From Candidatus Multivorans sp. (lineage in GTDB: Bacteria > Acidobacteriota > Thermoanaerobaculia > Multivoradales > Multivoraceae): a stretch of 64,000 nt of DNA. The position numbers and the translations under genes were made by a program. The notes beneath the pieces are model-generated. The model was given only the letters and a program-made list of their open reading frames with translations, did no database searches and was not told the origin of the DNA. Where the stretch lies: NCBI GenBank assembly GCA_965224025.1, contig OZ245033.1, forward strand, positions 4,736,001 through 4,800,000, written 5' to 3'. How positions within the stretch are numbered: position 1 is the first letter of the stretch; each line of letters begins with the position of its first letter. Positions 4,289 to 33,970 of the stretch are shown one piece after another.

Positions 4289-4828
4289 TCGAGGAAACCC
4301 CATCCTCGCTCGCGGTACAGGGCGCGATTCCCCGAGATCAGCGCGTTGGCCTGATCGACGCTGAAGACCTCCGCCTCGAACGTCCCGATCCACTCAGACA
4401 GGCGCTCGTGGTCTTCGTGTTCGGGATCGGCAAGCGCCTCCACCAGGTTCCAGTATCCGCCGACGCCGCCGCAGTCCTCCGGCGGGCAGGCCCGGGCGCC
4501 TTCGATGCAGCGCGGCAGGTCCATTCCACGCGACGGAACCGTCCCTGCGGAAGGAGCGACCCTCTTCTCCACCGTCAGCGCGTGGTGCCAGTCGTCGCCG
4601 AAGTCGTACACGTAGACGAAGCCCGTGCCGACGGGCAGGACGTCGGCCAACACGTGGTCCCGTGCGTTTTCTCCAAGTTCGGGTTCTTCCGCGGAGTACG
4701 GGCTCGGCGTCTCGAACCAGACGCCGCCGATGCCGAACATGGACAGGTGGGTGTCGTGCCAGCCCATGGCGCCCGAGTTCACCCGGCCGGCGTTATAGTC
4801 GAGAAGCTGAGGCTGGGAGTCGGTCATC
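4285..4828 (-). CDS. Plasmid pRiA4b ORF3-family protein, probably N-terminally truncated
   Basis: MGWHDTHL, YVYDFGDDWHH and GARACPPEDCGG motifs; the usual N-terminal WRR segment is absent. Confidence 0.8.
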
Positions 4829-4884
4829 TGACCACCGCCTAGAGACTGCCGGCGAAAGGAACTGAAGGTCTCCAGAGGGGCATC

Positions 4885-5343
4885 ATGGTCCACTTCACAA
4901 TCAACGGACGGAAGTTCGCGTCCCGGGAGAGCCGCGTCACCGTCGCGTGGCTTCTGGAGCAGATAGGGCTGGAGCCAGGCGACGCCGTGCTTGAGCGCTC
5001 GGATACGGGAGAGACGTGGTCAGACCCATCGGCGCTCGTCGAACTGAGGGAAGGGGACAAGTTCGAGGCCAAGCCCAAGAGGGACCCCACGCCTGTTCCC
5101 GAGCCGCGAATCAGCTACACGGTCAACGGCGAGCCTCAAGTCACGGAGAAGACTCCGCTGACCCTAGAGAAGCTCTTGCGTCGAGCGGGCCCCGACGCCG
5201 CGATCGATCTAGGCCAGTTGGAGAGCTACTACCTCGTCAACGTCCGTAGCGGGGTCCGGTACGAGAACCTGGGCGATGAAGTGCCCATCGCTGATGGCGA
5301 CCAGTTCGTGGCGCTTCACGCGGGGCGCACTACGGTCGCCTGA
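4885..5343 (+). CDS. Tandem ubiquitin-like (multi-ubiquitin) protein, BubA-like
   Basis: Two beta-grasp-like repeats (FTING...VELREGDKF; YTVNG...VPIADGDQF) ending HAGRTTVA; first gene of an operon with E2-like and E1-like genes. Confidence 0.8.
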   Translation: MVHFTINGRKFASRESRVTVAWLLEQIGLEPGDAVLERSDTGETWSDPSALVELREGDKFEAKPKRDPTPVPEPRISYTVNGEPQVTEKTPLTLEKLLRRAGPDAAIDLGQLESYYLVNVRSGVRYENLGDEVPIADGDQFVALHAGRTTVA

Positions 5344-25353: not shown

Positions 25354-25992
25354 ATGAAGCTGCACTGGTTCGTCTTCCTCGCCCTGATCGGCATGTGCCT
25401 CACCGTGGGCGCGGCCTTCGTCACGCCGCAGACGCCCTACGAGGACGTGGTCCTGGAGGACGGCACGACCGAGCGGGTGATCAAGAGCCGCGGCTTCGAG
25501 CACGACCGCTTCGCGACCATGCGCCAGGGCGGGTCGGGCGCCGAGCGCCACGCCACGACGCTCTGGATCGGCTGGGCGTTCGTGATCTTCCAGGTGCTCT
25601 TCTTCGGCGGCTGCCTGGCGATGGGCATGGAGCGGCGCCGAGCGGGCGGCGCATCCCTGGGACCGGCCAAGCGGCCGCTGATCGTCGGCACCCTGGTTCT
25701 GGCCGCGATCTTCACCGCGCTCGTGTTCTCGTACCAGCGCTACGCCACCGAGGACACGCACACCCTGTTCCTGGGCTTCCCCAGGCCCACGGCGTGGGTG
25801 TTCTACGCGGTGTGGCCGTTCCCGGTGTTCCTGATGGTCGTCTACATGCGGATCTTCGACCGCTGGTTCTTCACCGAAGAGGACGAACGCAAGGTGGCGG
25901 AACTCGCCGCGGCGCAACGCCTGAAGGAGAGAGAGAACCGGAAGGAACTTGAAGCCGGCGGCAGCGACGCGGCCCGGGCGGGAGGCTGCTGA
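25354..25992 (+). CDS. Membrane protein, probable symporter accessory subunit
   Basis: About four hydrophobic segments; TGATG coupling to the symporter gene. Confidence 0.7.
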   Translation: MKLHWFVFLALIGMCLTVGAAFVTPQTPYEDVVLEDGTTERVIKSRGFEHDRFATMRQGGSGAERHATTLWIGWAFVIFQVLFFGGCLAMGMERRRAGGASLGPAKRPLIVGTLVLAAIFTALVFSYQRYATEDTHTLFLGFPRPTAWVFYAVWPFPVFLMVVYMRIFDRWFFTEEDERKVAELAAAQRLKERENRKELEAGGSDAARAGGC

Positions 25993-27479
25993 TGGAAGAG
26001 AGCCGCAACGCCGTCGTCCTGACCTGCCTCCTCATCTACTTCGCGCTGTGCATCGGCGTCGGCATCTGGGCGCTCAGGCGCACGAAGTCGTCCCAGGACT
26101 TCTTCATGGCCGGCCGCGAACTCGGCATCATCGTCACCGCCTTCGCGCTCTTCTCGAGCACGCTCTCCGGCTTCGGTTTCGTCGGCGGCCCCGGCCTCGT
26201 CTACAGCCAGGGCATGACTTCGGTGTGGATGATCGTCTGCGGCACGGTGGCGAGCTGCTTCACCTTCTTCCTGGTGGCGAAGCGGCTGCGCATCTTCTCG
26301 GAGGTGTACCAGACGGTGTCGCTGCCGGACACCGTGGCGCTGCGCTACCAGAGCGAGACCAGCCGATTCCTGACCGCCGTGGCGATCATCCTCGGCGTCG
26401 TGGGCTACCTGGCGGCGCAGATCATGGCGATGGCGGTGGTGCTGCAGGAGATCCTGAACAACGTCGACGGCATGCCCCACGTGAGCCTCGGCGCCTCCAT
26501 GGCCATCTCCGTCGCCGTCCTCGTCTTCTACTGCGTGACCGGCGGCATCATCGCCGGCGTCTACACCGACGTCGTCCAGGGCGCGGTGATGGCGATCGCC
26601 GGCGTGCTGGTGGTCATCGCGGCGATAGGCGCGGTCGACGGCGGCATCGCCGGCGGCGCCATGACGCTGGTGAACGACGATCCGGAGGCGATCGGACCGT
26701 GGGGCACCCTCGGCATCATGGGGGCGCTGTCCTACTACCTCCTGTTCGTGGTCGGGGCCTGCGGACAGCCCCACATCATCACCAAGCTGATGATGAACAA
26801 GCGGATCCGCCAGTTCAAGCAGATCTTCATGGTCAGCGCGATCGCCGGCTTCTTCGCGGCGCTGCTGTGGATCGCGATCGGCTTCGCGATGCGGGCGCTG
26901 GTCGTGGCCGGCGACCATCCCGAACTCGGGCAGCCCGACGACGCGGCATATGCGTTCCTCCAGGCGTACGCCCATCCGATCCTGGCCGGCATCGTTTTCG
27001 CCGCTCTCTTCGCCGCCATCATGTCGACTGCGGACGGCTTCCTCAACATCGGCGCCGCCGCGATCATCCACGACATTCCCAAGGCGCTCTTCGGCAAGCC
27101 ACTCAAGAAGGAGCTGTTCTGGGCCCGCGTGGCGACCCTGGGTCTGGCCGTGGGCGCGGCGCTCTTCGTGAGCCTCTCCAAGGAGGACCTGGTCGCCCTG
27201 CTCGGCACTTTCGGCTGGGGGACGTTCGCCGCCGCGCTGGTGCCGACGGTGGCGATCGGTTTCAACTGGAAACGCGCGACGGCGCTCGCGGCGAACGTCG
27301 CCATCATCTCGAGCCTCGCCGTGAACTTCTTCATCGAGATCGCGGGGATCCAGGTGCCCCACGGCATCCACGGCGGCGCCATCTCGCTGCTGCTCTCGCT
27401 GACCCTGTTCTTCGGCATCTCCCTGCTGTCGAAACCGCGGCCGCTTCCACGCGAGGTGGACGCGATCCTCGATCTGTAG
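25992..27479 (+). CDS. Sodium:solute symporter (PutP/PanF-like)
   Basis: DFFMAGR, SGFGFVGGPG, YTDVVQG, AAIMSTAD; many transmembrane helices. Confidence 0.92.
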   Translation: MEESRNAVVLTCLLIYFALCIGVGIWALRRTKSSQDFFMAGRELGIIVTAFALFSSTLSGFGFVGGPGLVYSQGMTSVWMIVCGTVASCFTFFLVAKRLRIFSEVYQTVSLPDTVALRYQSETSRFLTAVAIILGVVGYLAAQIMAMAVVLQEILNNVDGMPHVSLGASMAISVAVLVFYCVTGGIIAGVYTDVVQGAVMAIAGVLVVIAAIGAVDGGIAGGAMTLVNDDPEAIGPWGTLGIMGALSYYLLFVVGACGQPHIITKLMMNKRIRQFKQIFMVSAIAGFFAALLWIAIGFAMRALVVAGDHPELGQPDDAAYAFLQAYAHPILAGIVFAALFAAIMSTADGFLNIGAAAIIHDIPKALFGKPLKKELFWARVATLGLAVGAALFVSLSKEDLVALLGTFGWGTFAAALVPTVAIGFNWKRATALAANVAIISSLAVNFFIEIAGIQVPHGIHGGAISLLLSLTLFFGISLLSKPRPLPREVDAILDL

Positions 27480-27492
27480 CAGCAATCCGCGA

Positions 27493-28434
27493 ATGACGGT
27501 TTCGCCCAACTTCCAGCGCTCCAGCCCCGCCACCGACCGCGGCTTTGCCGATGTCGACGCGGTCGTCGCCGCCCTGCGCGCGGAGGACTACATCGCCGAA
27601 CGGGACCTCGCAACCGCGATCTACCTGTCGCTGCGCATGGGCAAGCCGATCTTCCTGGAAGGCGAACCCGGCGTCGGCAAGACGGAGGTCGCCAAGGTCC
27701 TCTCGCGTTGCCTGGGCTCCGAACTGATCCGGCTCCAGTGCTACGAGGGGCTCGACGTTTCGACCGCCGTCTACGAGTGGAACTACCGCCGGCAGTTGCT
27801 CCACCTGCGCGGCGTGGAGGCGGCCGGCGGAGGCGACGCCCGGGGCGCCGTGGACGACGTCTTCTCCTCCGACTTCCTGCTCGAGCGGCCCCTCTTGCGC
27901 GCCGTCCAGACGAGCCGCGGGGGCGAGGCCCCGCCGGTCCTGCTGATCGACGAACTCGACCGGGCCGACGAAGAGTTCGAGGCCTACCTGCTCGAGATCC
28001 TGGCCGACTTCCAGATCACGATCCCCGAGATCGGCACGGTCGCCGCAGAAGAGCCCCCGGTCGCGGTCGTCACCTCGAACCGCACCCGCGAGGTCCACGA
28101 CGCGCTGAAGCGCCGCTGCCTCTACCACTGGATCGACTTCCCCGACTACGAAAAGGAAGTCCAGATCGTGCTGCGGCGCGTACCCGAGGCGCCCGAACAC
28201 TTCGCCTCCCAGATCGTCCGCCTGGTGCAGGCGCTGCGCGAGGAGGACCTGTTCAAGCAGCCGGGCGTCGCCGAGACCCTGGACTGGACGAACGCCCTGA
28301 TCGCCCTCGACCAGGAAACGCTTTCCGACGGCATCCTCCGCGACACCCTGGGGGTGCTCCTCAAGTACCAGGACGACCTCGACAAGATCGACGACGAGGC
28401 GGTCCGCCGGCTACTCCGGAAGAGCCAGTCGTAG
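27493..28434 (+). CDS. MoxR-family AAA+ ATPase (CoxD-like)
   Basis: LEGEPGVGKT, RLQCYEG, LLIDELDRAD, TSNRTREVHDALKRRC. Confidence 0.92.
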   Translation: MTVSPNFQRSSPATDRGFADVDAVVAALRAEDYIAERDLATAIYLSLRMGKPIFLEGEPGVGKTEVAKVLSRCLGSELIRLQCYEGLDVSTAVYEWNYRRQLLHLRGVEAAGGGDARGAVDDVFSSDFLLERPLLRAVQTSRGGEAPPVLLIDELDRADEEFEAYLLEILADFQITIPEIGTVAAEEPPVAVVTSNRTREVHDALKRRCLYHWIDFPDYEKEVQIVLRRVPEAPEHFASQIVRLVQALREEDLFKQPGVAETLDWTNALIALDQETLSDGILRDTLGVLLKYQDDLDKIDDEAVRRLLRKSQS

Positions 28435-28486
28435 CCGCTTCGTCGCGGCGCGTTTGACCTGCTCAGAGACCCACTGCTGCCGTGAT

Positions 28487-28503
28487 CTAGCTAAACTAGC
28501 TAG
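28487..28503. promoter_or_regulatory. Putative TA operator palindrome
   Basis: CTAGCTA-AAC-TAGCTAG inverted repeat just upstream of the antitoxin start. Confidence 0.55.
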
Positions 28504-28515
28504 GTAGGGGGAAAG

Positions 28516-28746
28516 ATGCTCGTCAACATGCACGCCGCCAAGTCGCAATTGTCGAAGCTCATCGTCGCCGCCGAAGCGGGCGACGACGTGATCATCGCCC
28601 GCGGGGGCAAGCCCGCGGTGAGGCTGGTTCCCGTGACGTCGAAGACGTTCCGTTTCGGCAGTTTGGCCCATTTGGTCAAGTCCGTGCCTGACTTCGATGA
28701 AGCGATGGACGACGCCGAGTTGGCTCTCTGGGAGGGAACGTCCTGA
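28516..28746 (+). CDS. Phd/YefM-family antitoxin
   Basis: VNMHAAKSQLSKLI..AEAGDDVIIARGGKPAVRLVP. Confidence 0.9.
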   Translation: MLVNMHAAKSQLSKLIVAAEAGDDVIIARGGKPAVRLVPVTSKTFRFGSLAHLVKSVPDFDEAMDDAELALWEGTS

Positions 28747-29138
28747 GTTCCGTACTGCTCGACACTCACGCGTGGATTTGGAGTCTCATGGAACCAGGGC
28801 GTCTCACCGGCGCCGCGAAGGCTGCGGTGCTCGATGCCGACGTGGTCTATGCCAGCCCGATCAGTGTCTACGAGGTGACGAGAAAGGTGCGACTGGGCAA
28901 GTGGCCGGACATGGCGCCGCATGTGGACGCCCTGGTGACCGAGACCGAAACGCTATCCGCTCCCTTCACTCGGGCCATTGCAGCTCGTGCCGGCATGCTC
29001 GGCTGGGTGCATCGCGACCCGTTCGATCGTCTCATTGCCGCTTCCTCGATCGAGCTGCGTTGCCCGCTGATCTCCAAGGACGCCGCGTTCGATGCGCTCG
29101 AAGGGACGCCGGGCTGGCAGGGACGGATCTGGTCTTAG
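28743..29138 (+). CDS. vapC: VapC/PIN toxin (only a CTG at the expected start)
   Basis: SVLLDTHAWIW, SPISVYE, HRDPFDRLIAA, LISKD; overlaps the antitoxin stop as CTGA. Confidence 0.82.
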   Translation: MSSVLLDTHAWIWSLMEPGRLTGAAKAAVLDADVVYASPISVYEVTRKVRLGKWPDMAPHVDALVTETETLSAPFTRAIAARAGMLGWVHRDPFDRLIAASSIELRCPLISKDAAFDALEGTPGWQGRIWS

Positions 29139-29346
29139 CCGCCCCTCCCCCGCACTGCGGGACAAGAGGGGCGGCCACCGAGTCTCATCATGACCCTCCC
29201 TGAACGCTCACTGCGCTCCCGCCGCCGCCGTGGCGGCGCCGGCTCCGGCTGCTGAGCGTGCGGGCTACACGAAAACCGTTGTTGTTGTTGCGGTTGTCGG
29301 TGGTGTTCCTGTTGCGGTTCGCGGAGCGGAGGTTCCTCGGTTTGTT
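29138..29346 (-). mobile_element. Orphan diversity-generating retroelement (DGR) template-repeat 3' half plus spacer remnant
   Basis: 29346-29254 reads NKPRNLRSANRNRNTTDNRNNNNGFRVARTL with 10 AAC codons out of 31, followed by GC-rich hairpins; no reverse transcriptase, avd or variable-repeat gene in the window. Confidence 0.8.
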
Positions 29347-29349
29347 GAC

Positions 29350-30546
29350 ATGCCAACGGTGACTGAAGCAGGAGCGCCGGCCCACGGCCACCTGCTCCGC
29401 AACATCGTGCTCTTCGGACGCCTGCTGCGGGTGGGCAGCCTGGACGTGACGCCGACCCAGCTCCGGGACTGGGTGGCGGCGCTCGAACTCGTCGACGTTG
29501 CCCGCAAGCGCGACGTGAAGGCGGCGGCCCGGGCCGTCCTGGTCAGCCGGCGCCGCGATCTGCCGTGGTTCGACAAGGCCTTCGAGCTCTTCTGGCAGGC
29601 ACGCGACCCGCGGGAGCTCGAACAGCTCGAACTGGGCCTCCTGGTCCAACGCCACACGGAGCGGACGAAGCGCGCGGCGATCCAGAAGCTGGCGCGTGGC
29701 GACAACGAAGGCGACGGCGACGGCGACGGCTTAATGGAGACCGACCGCACCGCGCGCACGGCCCTCTACAGCGCTCGCGAGGCGTTGCGGCAGAAGGACT
29801 TCGCCCTGCTCGAAGGCGACGAGCTCGACGAGATCAGGCAGTTGATGGCGTCCATGCACTGGCAGCTCGAGACGCGCCGCACGCGCCGGCTCAAGCCGAG
29901 CTCCGGGGGCCACCGCCTCGACCTGCGCCGCACGCTCCGGCGCAACCTGGGCCACGGCGGCGAGTTGATCGACCTCGTCGGCCGCGACCGCAAACACCGG
30001 CGGCGGCCCCTGGTGCTGCTCTGCGACATCTCCGGCTCCATGAAGCCCTACTCGCGGCTGCTGCTCCACTTCATCTACGCCGTCTCCCACCCCAGGTCCG
30101 CCGACCCTGGCATCTCCAGGGTGGAAGCCTTCGCCTTCGGCACCCGCCTCACCCGCCTCACGCGCGAACTCGCCGAACGCGACCTCGACCGGGCGCTCCA
30201 GGCCTCCGTCCACCGGATCGAAGACTGGGGCGGCGGCACCCGCACCGGCGAGGCCCTGCGCGAGTTCAACTTCGTCTGGGGCCGGCGCCTCCTCGGCCAG
30301 GGCGCCGCCGTCCTCATCATCAGCGACGGCTGGGACCGCGGCGACATCGCCCTCCTCGGCAAGGAAATGGAACGCCTCCACCGAAGCTGCCACCGCCTCA
30401 TCTGGCTCAATCCGCTTCTGGGCTCCCCCCGCTACGAGCCCCTGACCCGCGGTATTGTGGCCGCCCTCCCCCACATCGACGACTTCCTCCCCGTCCACAA
30501 CCTGGCGAGCCTGGAGCAGCTCGGCGACCTGCTGGCGTCGCTGTAG
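29350..30546 (+). CDS. VWA-domain protein (CoxE-like)
   Basis: FGRLLR, LCDISGSM, FAFGTRLT, GGGTR, IISDGWD, WLNPL, FLPVHNLASL; ATG at 29350. Confidence 0.92.
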   Translation: MPTVTEAGAPAHGHLLRNIVLFGRLLRVGSLDVTPTQLRDWVAALELVDVARKRDVKAAARAVLVSRRRDLPWFDKAFELFWQARDPRELEQLELGLLVQRHTERTKRAAIQKLARGDNEGDGDGDGLMETDRTARTALYSAREALRQKDFALLEGDELDEIRQLMASMHWQLETRRTRRLKPSSGGHRLDLRRTLRRNLGHGGELIDLVGRDRKHRRRPLVLLCDISGSMKPYSRLLLHFIYAVSHPRSADPGISRVEAFAFGTRLTRLTRELAERDLDRALQASVHRIEDWGGGTRTGEALREFNFVWGRRLLGQGAAVLIISDGWDRGDIALLGKEMERLHRSCHRLIWLNPLLGSPRYEPLTRGIVAALPHIDDFLPVHNLASLEQLGDLLASL

Positions 30547-31172: not shown

Positions 31173-33398
31173 TCAGGGCTCATAGATCAACCGCAACTCA
31201 GCCGCGATGTTCGCCCCGTCGTCGGCAAACAGCTCCTCGCGCGCAAACCAGCCCGGCTTCATGGCGCCGGGTGAGAACAATTTCTCGGCCTGATCCCGGT
31301 AGTGGGGCGAGTCGGAGCGATCGCTCTGGCCGATCGGGGGCTGGGTGTAGCTCCGGATCGGGTTGCTCCGGATGACGACTTCGGTCGAGGTCTGGCCGCG
31401 GTTGCCCCAACGTCTACCGTCGGCGCGCGGCTGACTGAACCCCACGGAACGGAGCGTTGCCATGCCGGCCTCGCCGAGCGAGCCGCCGCCGACCGGCCAG
31501 GAGACCACGTCCGCCGAGTCCTGGCGGCCGACCCGGAACACGTCGCCGAAGGTTGCCTCGAAGCCCCCCGGGCCTGAGTGCAACGCCTCGGCCGCGGCAT
31601 CGACCGCCTCGACCAGCTCCGGCAGTTCGTCGTCGCGCAGTCCAAGCGGCTCGGGCGCCTCGCGGATGAGCTCCAGGTAGTCGTTGACGCGCGCGGTCAT
31701 GTCGTTCATCCGTTCGGCGCCTACGAGGCCGCGCAGTGCTTCACGCCACCGGAAGTAGGCGAGCGCGCCTTGCGAGTCCGGCTCGGAGACGCCGTTCCAC
31801 TCCCCGATGCGACGCGCTACCTCGGCATGGTCCGCTGAACGCTGCCCCGAGACGGCGGCTTCCGCCCGCCGCAACTCCTCCACCCAGCACTCGAACTTGT
31901 AGACCGAGCGGTCGAGCGCGAGTTCCACGATCTCCTCTTCGCTCCACTTGCCCCCGGCTTCCCGCGTCGCCTCCAGGCGGGCGATCGCGCTCGCGCCACG
32001 CTGATGGGTGTACAGAGCGGGCTGGTTGTACAGATACGCCGGGTAGCGGTCAGGAACGAGCGGCGAGCCGACCAGCATCGTGTCCGGCCCTATGTTGTTG
32101 TTCTGCATGTACCCGCGTTCCGGGTTGAGCAGCGACATCAGATCGGACGCCGGATGGATGCCCAGCCATTCCGTGTCGGAGGTCGATCCATCGACCGGCC
32201 GGCGCCAGTCGTAGCCCTGGGGACGGATCGGCACCCGGCCGGTGCGCTGGTAGTAGATGTTGCCCCCGGTGTCGGCGATCATTACGTTCTGCGGCATGAT
32301 CTGGCGCACATCCAGGGCCTTGGCGGCGCCCAGGTAGTCCTCGGCGACCATGAAGTGGTACTTGGACTCCAGATAGCCGATCTCCTCCTCGTAGGCCAGG
32401 GCGGCGGCCCAGGCCTTGTCGCCTTGCCGCGCCACGATCGGGCCGTGGTGGGAGTACCAGAACGTCGCCTCGCGCGGCGACTCCTCGCCGGCGACCCGGA
32501 CCTCGACAGTGCGGCTCTTCATCCGCCGCCACTCGCCGTCGTACAGGTAGCGGCTCGGATCCTCCGGATCGAGGGTCAGTTCGTAGGCGTCGGCCGTGTC
32601 CGGCCCGCCGGTCGTATGGGCCCAGGCGACATGCTCGTTGTGGCCCAGGTTGACGTAGGGGAAGCCCGCGGTTGCGAAGCCGCTGATGTGGATGTCGCCG
32701 GCATGGAGGCGCACCTCCCAGTAGCGGTGGCGGCCAAGCCAGGACAGGTGCGGGTCGATGATCAGCGCCGCGGCGCCGAAGGTGGTCTGGTCCGGCGCCA
32801 GCGCGATCTGGTTCGAGGCCCGCAGGTCGACGTCGAAGCTCGGTTCGATGCCGACCGCCCGCAGATCGGAGCGCGCCTGCCCCGCCGGCCAGCTCCAGAT
32901 GAATTGCCGGCTGAAGGCGACCGGCATGTAGACGTCGACCTTCCGGCTGCCCCACCACTCCGGCACTTCACCGGGATGCGCTTCCAGGTAGGCGTTGATG
33001 CCATCGATGAACGCGGCCAGGTGTCGCCGGAGCTCCGGGTTGAGCTTCGCCTCGTAGTGGCGTTTCGCCGTGCCGTAGTGATCCCACATACGGGAATCGA
33101 GGTCGGACCGTACCCAGCGGTCGTTGTCGCCGGGCCCGAAGGCGGCGGCGTACTCGCCGAGCCCGAAGAGGTAGTTCTCGAGCAGTTGCGACAACCGATC
33201 CTCGGCCATCGCCCAGCCGGAAGCGTAGAGCCCGGCCTCGGCGGACTCGGCATAGATGTGGGGGACACCCCAGGTGTCCCGGTAGACCGTCGCCTCCTCG
33301 CCGTCTCCGCCGGGCGGCGCACAGGCCGCGACCAGCGCCAGCAGCGGTACCGCGAGGAGCGCACGGCAAGCCACCCGCGGCCCCGATTCGTCCGCCAT
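31173..33398 (-). CDS. Penicillin/AHL acylase-family Ntn hydrolase (lipoprotein)
   Basis: RDTWGVPHIYA, G.AMAEDRL, catalytic SNQIA, DPHLSW, AWAHT, NPERGYMQNNN; lipobox LVAAC. Confidence 0.9.
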   Translation of the reverse strand: MADESGPRVACRALLAVPLLALVAACAPPGGDGEEATVYRDTWGVPHIYAESAEAGLYASGWAMAEDRLSQLLENYLFGLGEYAAAFGPGDNDRWVRSDLDSRMWDHYGTAKRHYEAKLNPELRRHLAAFIDGINAYLEAHPGEVPEWWGSRKVDVYMPVAFSRQFIWSWPAGQARSDLRAVGIEPSFDVDLRASNQIALAPDQTTFGAAALIIDPHLSWLGRHRYWEVRLHAGDIHISGFATAGFPYVNLGHNEHVAWAHTTGGPDTADAYELTLDPEDPSRYLYDGEWRRMKSRTVEVRVAGEESPREATFWYSHHGPIVARQGDKAWAAALAYEEEIGYLESKYHFMVAEDYLGAAKALDVRQIMPQNVMIADTGGNIYYQRTGRVPIRPQGYDWRRPVDGSTSDTEWLGIHPASDLMSLLNPERGYMQNNNIGPDTMLVGSPLVPDRYPAYLYNQPALYTHQRGASAIARLEATREAGGKWSEEEIVELALDRSVYKFECWVEELRRAEAAVSGQRSADHAEVARRIGEWNGVSEPDSQGALAYFRWREALRGLVGAERMNDMTARVNDYLELIREAPEPLGLRDDELPELVEAVDAAAEALHSGPGGFEATFGDVFRVGRQDSADVVSWPVGGGSLGEAGMATLRSVGFSQPRADGRRWGNRGQTSTEVVIRSNPIRSYTQPPIGQSDRSDSPHYRDQAEKLFSPGAMKPGWFAREELFADDGANIAAELRLIYEP

Positions 33399-33412
33399 GC
33401 CGATCCTCCTCC

Positions 33413-33970
33413 TCAACCCGCCGGTTTCTTCGCCGACTTCGGCCGAAACGCCTTGATCCGCGCCTCGTTCGTCGTTAGGTACGGCCCGCCGATCAGGTCC
33501 ACGCAATACGGAATCGCAGGAAACACCGCGTCGAGACACTCCCCGATCGCCTTCGGCTGGCCCGGCAGGTTGACGATCAGCGACGAGCCGCGGACCGCCG
33601 CCGTCTGCCGCGAGAGGATCGCGGTCGGGACGGCGAGAAGCGACACCTGCCGCATCAACTCGCCGAACCCCGGCATCGGCTTCTCGCACACGGCCAGGGT
33701 CGCCTCCGGCGTCACGTCGCGCGCCGCCGGCCCGGTGCCGCCGGTGGTCACGACGAGACAGCAGCCTTCGTCGTCGCAGAGTTCGCGCAGCGCCGCAGCG
33801 ATCTGTTCGACCTCGTCCTCGACGACGCGGGCACACGGCTCCCAAGGCGAAGTCAGGACCTCCGCCAGGTAGTCGCGGATCGCCGGCCCGCCATGGTCCT
33901 CGTACACGCCGCGCGAGGCCCGGTCCGAGACGGTGACGATGCCGACGTGAGCCGTCGCGGGTTCCGGCAC
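33413..33970 (-). CDS. mog: Molybdopterin adenylyltransferase
   Basis: VSDRASRGVYED, TTGGTGPAARDVTPEAT, PTAILSRQ, NLPGQPKAI. Confidence 0.93.
   Translation of the reverse strand: MPEPATAHVGIVTVSDRASRGVYEDHGGPAIRDYLAEVLTSPWEPCARVVEDEVEQIAAALRELCDDEGCCLVVTTGGTGPAARDVTPEATLAVCEKPMPGFGELMRQVSLLAVPTAILSRQTAAVRGSSLIVNLPGQPKAIGECLDAVFPAIPYCVDLIGGPYLTTNEARIKAFRPKSAKKPAG

Follow-up and report, generated by a model that had tools for sequence, protein, structure and literature searches.

The gap between a coxD-like and a coxE-like gene of Candidatus Multivorans sp. very probably holds the inactive remnant of a chromosomal diversity-generating retroelement (DGR) of the order target-avd-RT-TR-spacer (architecture B2), left behind by one deletion. 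We analysed a window of 64,000 nucleotides (contig OZ245033.1, positions 4,736,001 to 4,800,000, numbered from 1 below) together with the rest of the assembly and the genomes of congeners. The reading as a DGR remnant is supported because a homologous template repeat (TR) and spacer occupy the same coxD–coxE gap in congeners that bear a reverse transcriptase (RT), and because the deletion could be mapped. A preliminary description, made from the letters of the window, had offered two possibilities, a DGR scar or a stand-alone template RNA working in trans. The first is sustained by the homology of TR and spacer to RT-bearing DGRs in the same gap and by searches of the assembly that found no DGR RT or Avd. 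The second fares badly: no RT or Avd was found in the assembly, the upstream operon is gone, and the variable repeat (VR) found elsewhere in the genome was copied from a longer TR.

The template repeat remnant, its spacer and its neighbours

On the minus strand, positions 29253 to 29347 carry the 3′ 95 nt of a TR, recognized by homology to congener TRs, which are 123 nt long in three congeners. Positions 29346 to 29254 read NKPRNLRSANRNRNTTDNRNNNNGFRVARTL and include ten AAC codons. The 96-nt stretch contains 31 adenines, against 16.3% A genome-wide, in a genome of 67.6% G+C. The preliminary description had singled out this A-rich minus-strand repeat and its ten AAC codons, and it is borne out by the sequence and by a genome-wide count of codon windows: ten AAC codons per 31-codon window occur nowhere else in the 5.14-Mb genome when both strands and all frames are counted. 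The AAC-rich stretch is not due to chance. Three further windows with nine AAC codons were rejected as templates, two of them lying in Asn-rich ORFs and one being a simple repeat.

The 3′ end of the remnant has the TR-type form GCCCGC, shared with 8/8 congener TRs in our alignment (A1), whereas VRs have GCCCGG (the remote VR of this genome, the VR of G054 and one VR of G056); we take this 3′ TR/VR marker to correspond to IMH*/IMH. Every template adenine has been kept. All 31 agree with congener TRs, at positions where the VRs differ; there are no private substitutions in the 95 nt, and the remnant equals the G055 TR at all columns aligned in A1, from the junction to the TR 3′ end. Remnant and spacer together (29137–29347) are 91–95% identical over 188–211 nt to seven RT-bearing congeners (G049, G050, G052, G053, G054, G055 and G056); for the elements of G024 and G045, whose adjacent RT is internally deleted, the figure is 87%. 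Given the TR-form marker and the homology to the TR and spacer of RT-bearing cassettes, the stretch is therefore a TR followed by its 3′ spacer, and no gene fragment.

The spacer is complete at 116 nt (29137–29252, minus strand), homology with congener elements extending to 29137/29138. It ends in a GC-rich hairpin (29138–29175, minus strand) that is kept in eight of the nine aligned elements; a 10-bp outer stem (29138–29147 with 29166–29175) encloses a 5-bp inner stem, and the 3′ arm overlaps the vapC stop codon on the plus strand. This 10-bp stem had been reported in the preliminary description along with the motif GTTCAGGGAGGGTCATGATGAG between the hairpins, and both are present in the sequence. 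The structured segment had also been thought to lead into the RT gene, which the comparison with congeners corrects: it is the 3′ spacer that comes after the TR.

A plausible fold was predicted for the spacer, in which the TR 3′ end (29253–29259) would pair with 29204–29210 and an inner hairpin would form at 29219–29242. RNAalifold returned 41 consensus pairs for the nine elements, with compensatory change in two only and a covariation term of +0.68, from an alignment that diverges too little for covariation to back or reject the fold. The genome under study has a G-G mismatch at one inner-hairpin pair and a few further private changes in the spacer, and none in the TR.

The gap is bordered on its left by a coxD-like MoxR AAA ATPase gene (27493–28434, plus strand; Pfam AAA_5, E=1.1e-11), the product of which shows 92–96% amino-acid identity in the seven congener loci with a coxD match. 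It is followed on the same strand by a Phd/YefM-type antitoxin gene (28516–28746; Pfam PhdYeFM_antitox, E=2.2e-7; 94.7% identity in G054) and by its partner, a vapC-like PIN toxin gene that is convergent with the TR and spacer (28788–29138; Pfam PIN, E=6e-9; 95.7% amino-acid identity to the G054 copy). This vapBC pair is a neighbour and lies outside the DGR. A second vapBC-like copy is present in the genome (C1:2006381–2007034) and is 88% identical to positions 28483–29136 of the window.

To the right lies a coxE-like VWA gene (29350–30546, plus strand; Pfam VWA_CoxE, E=6.7e-68), whose N-terminus matches congeners from the same ATG and whose native upstream region has been replaced by antisense TR. 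An ORF with a GTG start runs in frame through the antisense TR (29230–30546, plus strand) and encodes 438 aa, compared with 398 aa from the ATG at 29350; over-extension of CoxE by 40 residues is a possible gene-caller error. No CO-dehydrogenase subunit gene adjoins the coxD/coxE-like pair, the putative neighbours of which (25992–27479 and 31173–33845) are, named by sequence, a sodium:solute symporter and a penicillin-acylase-like protein. "MoxR-VWA pair" may be a safer name than coxD/coxE.

Intact cassettes in congeners and the proposed deletion junction

A search of 40 relatives revealed a match in G024 to the repeat plus 96 nt beyond it (87% identity over 191 nt), and the full-length DGR RT frames of the genus were traced with the RT C-terminal fragment of that genome. 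The G024 locus itself (L018) was dropped as an intact reference, its RT being internally deleted with a 176-aa frame left. Weaker PF00078 matches (L025, L026 and L029) were rejected as partner RT; they are long ORFs lacking LPIGNLTSQ and YVDDF. These two motifs are found in the RT frames of G052, G053, G054 and G056. In G056, the RT is recognized by Pfam RVT_1 (E=3.5e-18) and the Avd by bAvd (PF22296) and, with 106 bits for a cut-off of 80, by NCBIfam NF033474.

In G052, G054 and G056, tblastn gave the order coxD-(vapBC in G054)-TR/spacer-RT-Avd-target-coxE, the DGR being on the opposite strand, and in G049, G050 and G055 the coordinates likewise place RT and TR/spacer between coxD and coxE. 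Avd precedes each congener RT, and the TR comes after, overlapping the 3′ end of the RT open frame. Comparison of the G054 TR (123 nt, 34 A) with the VR next to it gives 17 differences at adenines and a single one at another base, where GCCCGC stands in the TR and GCCCGG in the VR. Such adenine-specific differences indicate canonical DGR behaviour in this family.

A hand tally of gap states among 41 congeners showed the gap to be empty (≤150 nt) in about 15 and to hold a single FGE-sulfatase gene in 11, vapBC only in two (G012 and G022), RT with TR/spacer in six and a partial RT in one (G048); the state was other or unclear in six. The loci compared were positions 27493–30546 of the window and L030–L034, L047–L049 and L056–L061 of the congeners. 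A TR/spacer in the gap without RT was seen in the genome under study only, the six congeners with TR/spacer in the gap (6/6) also having RT there. The vapBC-only gaps of G012 and G022 were checked for a relic of the same kind, and none was found. A gap so polymorphic (empty, target, TA pair, full DGR, relic) could be used to date DGR gains and losses.

Further arrangements are found in the genus. In G002 and G017 (L012 and L013, ~1400–1500), a 30-nt match to the TR 3′ end and spacer start stands right after the stop of the target gene that occupies the coxD–coxE gap (93% identity), which suggests that these "target-only" genomes once had a full cassette and lost avd-RT-TR. G024 (L018, C6:158000–176000) and G045 (C1:2204412–2204987) each have an Avd-like ORF and an RT reduced by internal deletion to a 176-aa frame ahead of a TR/spacer. 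In L018 this decayed DGR sits within an array of FGE-sulfatase domains, at least five of them, whose ends are VR-like; the array occupies a different chromosomal site, between argS-like and ftsZ-like genes. In G005 (L032, C12:1–6400), two FGE-sulfatase targets flank a putative nucleotidyltransferase and HepT-like gene pair (named by sequence), a frameshifted Avd lies at the contig end, and a short coxE-like fragment adjoins a spacer-like remnant.

The deletion junction was placed at 29347/29348 by a three-way comparison with the TR side and the coxE side of G054. Left of it, the TR sequence is as in G054; right of it, the sequence is that of G054 from 2 nt ahead of the coxE ATG onwards, into coxE itself. 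The junction is blunt, with microhomology of at most about 1 nt. Blast against G054 showed that positions 5140 and 8370 are joined and that ~3.2 kb is absent, comprising the target–coxE intergenic region, the adjacent target, avd, RT and, at the 5′ end of the TR, 28 of its 123 nt. The 5′ part of the TR, the RT, avd and the adjacent target were probably lost in one deletion of ~3.2 kb, as judged from this sequence comparison. We infer a deletion rather than an insertion, the polarity being set by parsimony, with six congeners carrying a full cassette at the site and about 15 an empty one. A recent deletion would fit the undecayed TR and the kept spacer hairpins, which do not prove inactivity.

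That the template is cut beside the coxE ATG had been seen in the preliminary description; TR homology indeed stops at 29347, 2 nt before the ATG (29350–29352). Its proposal that the TA pair occupies the former place of the RT is contradicted by G054, which carries the same vapBC beside an intact cassette and has its RT on the coxE side. Since the order in the family is avd-RT-TR, the former place of the RT was upstream of the TR, on the side now taken by coxE, and since vapBC is 95–96% identical to the pair beside the intact G054 cassette, the TA pair did not replace the RT. G054 has a segment of 553 nt, missing here, that separates the vapC stop from the spacer hairpin (L049, reverse complement 4377–4930); this segment contains a 50-codon ORF, a putative NYN-domain N-terminal fragment (named by sequence).

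Could the junction be an assembly artefact, a mis-join or a collapsed strain variant in an organism that carries the full cassette? The source metagenomes hold many related FGE-sulfatase sequences, and TR/VR repeats can mislead assemblers. However, the junction sits inside a 5.05-Mb contig and joins two sequences, the TR and the coxE upstream region, neither of which repeats the other, and searches of the whole assembly gave no second copy of the RT, of Avd or of the TR 5′ part. We therefore hold an artefact to be very unlikely.

A remote variable repeat and the search for RT and Avd

A DNA search of the same genome with positions 29130–29360 (minus strand) gave one other match, C1:2639925–2640020, which is 85% identical over exactly the repeat and lies 2.1 Mb from the TR remnant. 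It differs from the remnant at 14 of 96 nt. Template adenines, 31 in number, account for 12 of these (hypergeometric P=1.3e-5), and the C/G marker known from G054 is one of the two other positions. The match makes up the 3′ end of an ORF of 343 aa whose residues 110–339 form an FGE-sulfatase domain (Pfam E=8.9e-64) and whose C-terminus reads ...GFRVARTLTP*, the VR ending 8 nt before the stop codon. Downstream of it is a 10-bp GC hairpin with a 4-nt loop, CCAAGGGGGG-CTTG-CCCCCCTTGG. The preliminary description had seen no RT, avd or VR in the 64 kb, which stands, the one VR found being outside the window; it had also envisaged gene 3′ ends elsewhere in the genome that differ from the template at its adenines, and the 3′ end found here does so for the most part (12/14).

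Besides the TR and this VR, a scan of the genome that left the adenine positions free and tolerated at most 22 mismatches among the 65 others gave no further VR. The remote VR aligns to full congener TRs for about 28 nt past the 5′ end of the remnant, with two more A-to-T differences there. This homology and the A-to-T changes in the lost part of the TR imply that the VR was written from a full-length TR, before the deletion. At the syntenic site, the target gene is absent in G054, G052, G053 and G049, and G056 has a truncated copy. A remote VR-bearing gene of this kind would be missed by RT-centred DGR finders.

In X1 and X2, two metagenome runs of one sample (14 and 10 million contigs), the VR is covered over its full length by exact contigs that show 0 differences, at a depth of 12–17 (X1) and 35–37 (X2), like the flanks, although contigs drop rare variants. 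Runs X3–X11, which have small shares (0.05–0.07), were left out of this comparison, and run X12 yielded five partial contigs from other organisms.

The preliminary description had looked to the rest of the genome for a DGR-clade RT and Avd; profile and tblastn searches found neither in the 5.14-Mb assembly. The sole RVT_1 match (C1:4442667–4443302) is a truncated group-II-intron-type RT with QGAPISPLLSN, which scores 184 bits against TIGR04416 (cut-off 300) over model positions 63–279 of 353. With the G056 RT as query, tblastn returned this group-II-type ORF only (28% identity, E=1.6e-8), and the RT C-terminal query gave 0 matches in the genome. For Avd, the best tblastn match to the G056 protein had E=0.026, PF22296 gave 0 matches and the best PF05635 match had E=0.27. 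In the locus C1:4441167–4444802 (L009), the group-II-type RT adjoins a putative IS256-family transposase fragment (named by sequence).

Among the features of functional DGRs, the genome thus shows a TR/VR adenine pair, the 3′ marker and a C-terminal FGE-sulfatase VR with its hairpin; RT and Avd were not found in the assembly. The assembly has three contigs, 100% completeness and 5.66% contamination, and is probably a metagenome bin, since the source runs are metagenomes.

These results bear on whether the remnant might still be a functional stand-alone template RNA, used in trans on the remote FGE-sulfatase gene by an RT and Avd encoded elsewhere in the genome or on a missing replicon. The full match to the G055 TR, the complete spacer, and the VR-type 3′ marker and GC hairpin of the remote VR are all compatible with such a role. 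With an assembly that is probably a metagenome bin, the RT could sit on an unbinned replicon or in a co-existing strain, and chromosomal DGRs with remote targets >100 kb from the RT are documented by Wu et al. 2018 (PMC5758913). Yet RT and Avd were not found in the assembly, the operon that transcribed the TR has been deleted, antisense coxE now lying upstream, and the VR is also substituted at adenines of the 28-nt segment lost from the remnant. In addition, 6/6 congeners with TR/spacer in the gap, of 41, have RT there, and the VR is unchanged in the exact contigs of two runs, a weak point as contigs hide rare variants. We consider a template functioning in trans highly improbable.

A shade less probable again is that the truncated TR and spacer are expressed, for instance by read-through antisense to coxE, and used by an RT and Avd from an unassembled replicon or phage. 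If true, a 95-nt orphan template would be rewriting a target 2.1 Mb off, and DGR template and enzyme would be inherited separately.

Scarcely credible, too, is a decayed 3′ end (VR) of an ordinary FGE-sulfatase gene of the coxD–coxE gap, with no template involved: 11 congeners do have a single minus-strand FGE-sulfatase gene there whose 3′ end is 80–85% identical to the stretch, but that 3′ end faces coxD whereas the stretch abuts coxE, the 5′ side of the gene, and the stretch has the TR-type GCCCGC with no stop after RTL, is followed by a 116-nt spacer that is 91–95% identical to post-TR and not post-VR spacers, and has all 31 adenines as in congener TRs, where VRs differ.

Proposed history and known systems

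We favour an inactive DGR remnant left by one deletion, for which the following history can be proposed. In the ancestor, the DGR would have occupied the minus strand of the interval from vapBC/coxD to coxE, a place that it keeps in congeners today. By analogy with the family, an error-prone RT would have copied the avd-RT-TR transcript of the intact element, misreading adenines, and the cDNA would have replaced the 3′-terminal VR of target genes for FGE-sulfatases (C-type-lectin fold); the ancestral targets would have been the adjacent gene and at least one remote gene, at C1:2.64 Mb. A single deletion of ~3.2 kb would then have joined TR nucleotide 29347 to the 2 nt preceding the coxE start codon, with 95 nt of the TR and the whole spacer surviving. 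Deprived of RT, Avd and the upstream operon, the remnant would no longer support diversification and is presumably inactive at present, and the remote VR would be frozen as last written.

By itself, the remnant would matter little, as a dead fragment of a well-described retroelement class. It would also offer a clean natural case of DGR death, in which a template, a spacer and a remote VR, now frozen, outlast one blunt deletion, and sister species show what the intact, ancestor-like state looks like.

The Bordetella phage BPP-1 DGR serves as the mechanistic model. It presumably has in common with this DGR family a directional marker at the 3′ end of TR and VR, a GC hairpin 3′ of the VR and a structured RNA spacer after the TR. 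We take the two to differ in gene order and setting, BPP-1 having avd-TR-RT and a phage tail-fibre target, and this family being chromosomal, with the order avd-RT-TR and with the 3′ part of the RT open frame overlapped by the TR. Adenine mutagenic retrohoming from TR to VR, as described for BPP-1 (PMC3240598 and PMC5703328), would be a further likeness.

The closest match in architecture is with the B2 class, which Wu et al. 2018 (PMC5758913) define as avd-RT-TR. The same survey gives a CLec1 VR in an FGE-sulfatase domain as the largest target category, exemplified by Treponema denticola TvpA, and reports remote targets >100 kb from the RT in chromosomal DGRs. The congener gene order, the bAvd-type protein, the C-terminal FGE-sulfatase VR, the adenine-specific differences and remote targets at such a distance all agree with this portrait of B2 DGRs (PMC5758913). 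Unlike the functional B2 DGRs covered there, the genome under study keeps only 95 of 123 TR nt and the spacer, and RT, Avd and the adjacent target are absent.

In the literature searched, we found no description of an RT-less orphan TR with a remote VR. The nearest parallel is provided by the "degenerate" DGR loci of Thiohalocapsa PB-PSB1, where, according to Dore et al. 2024 (PMC10907252), key machinery is missing or pseudogenized and the repeats persist. Unlike the genome studied here, in whose assembly searches gave neither a complete locus nor a DGR RT, Thiohalocapsa keeps one complete locus per class, which could serve the degenerate ones, and its rearrangements are IS-linked (PMC10907252), in contrast to the single blunt deletion proposed here. 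With degenerate DGR loci already published (PMC10907252), we conclude that the coxD–coxE remnant is a further, decayed example of an element type that was already known.
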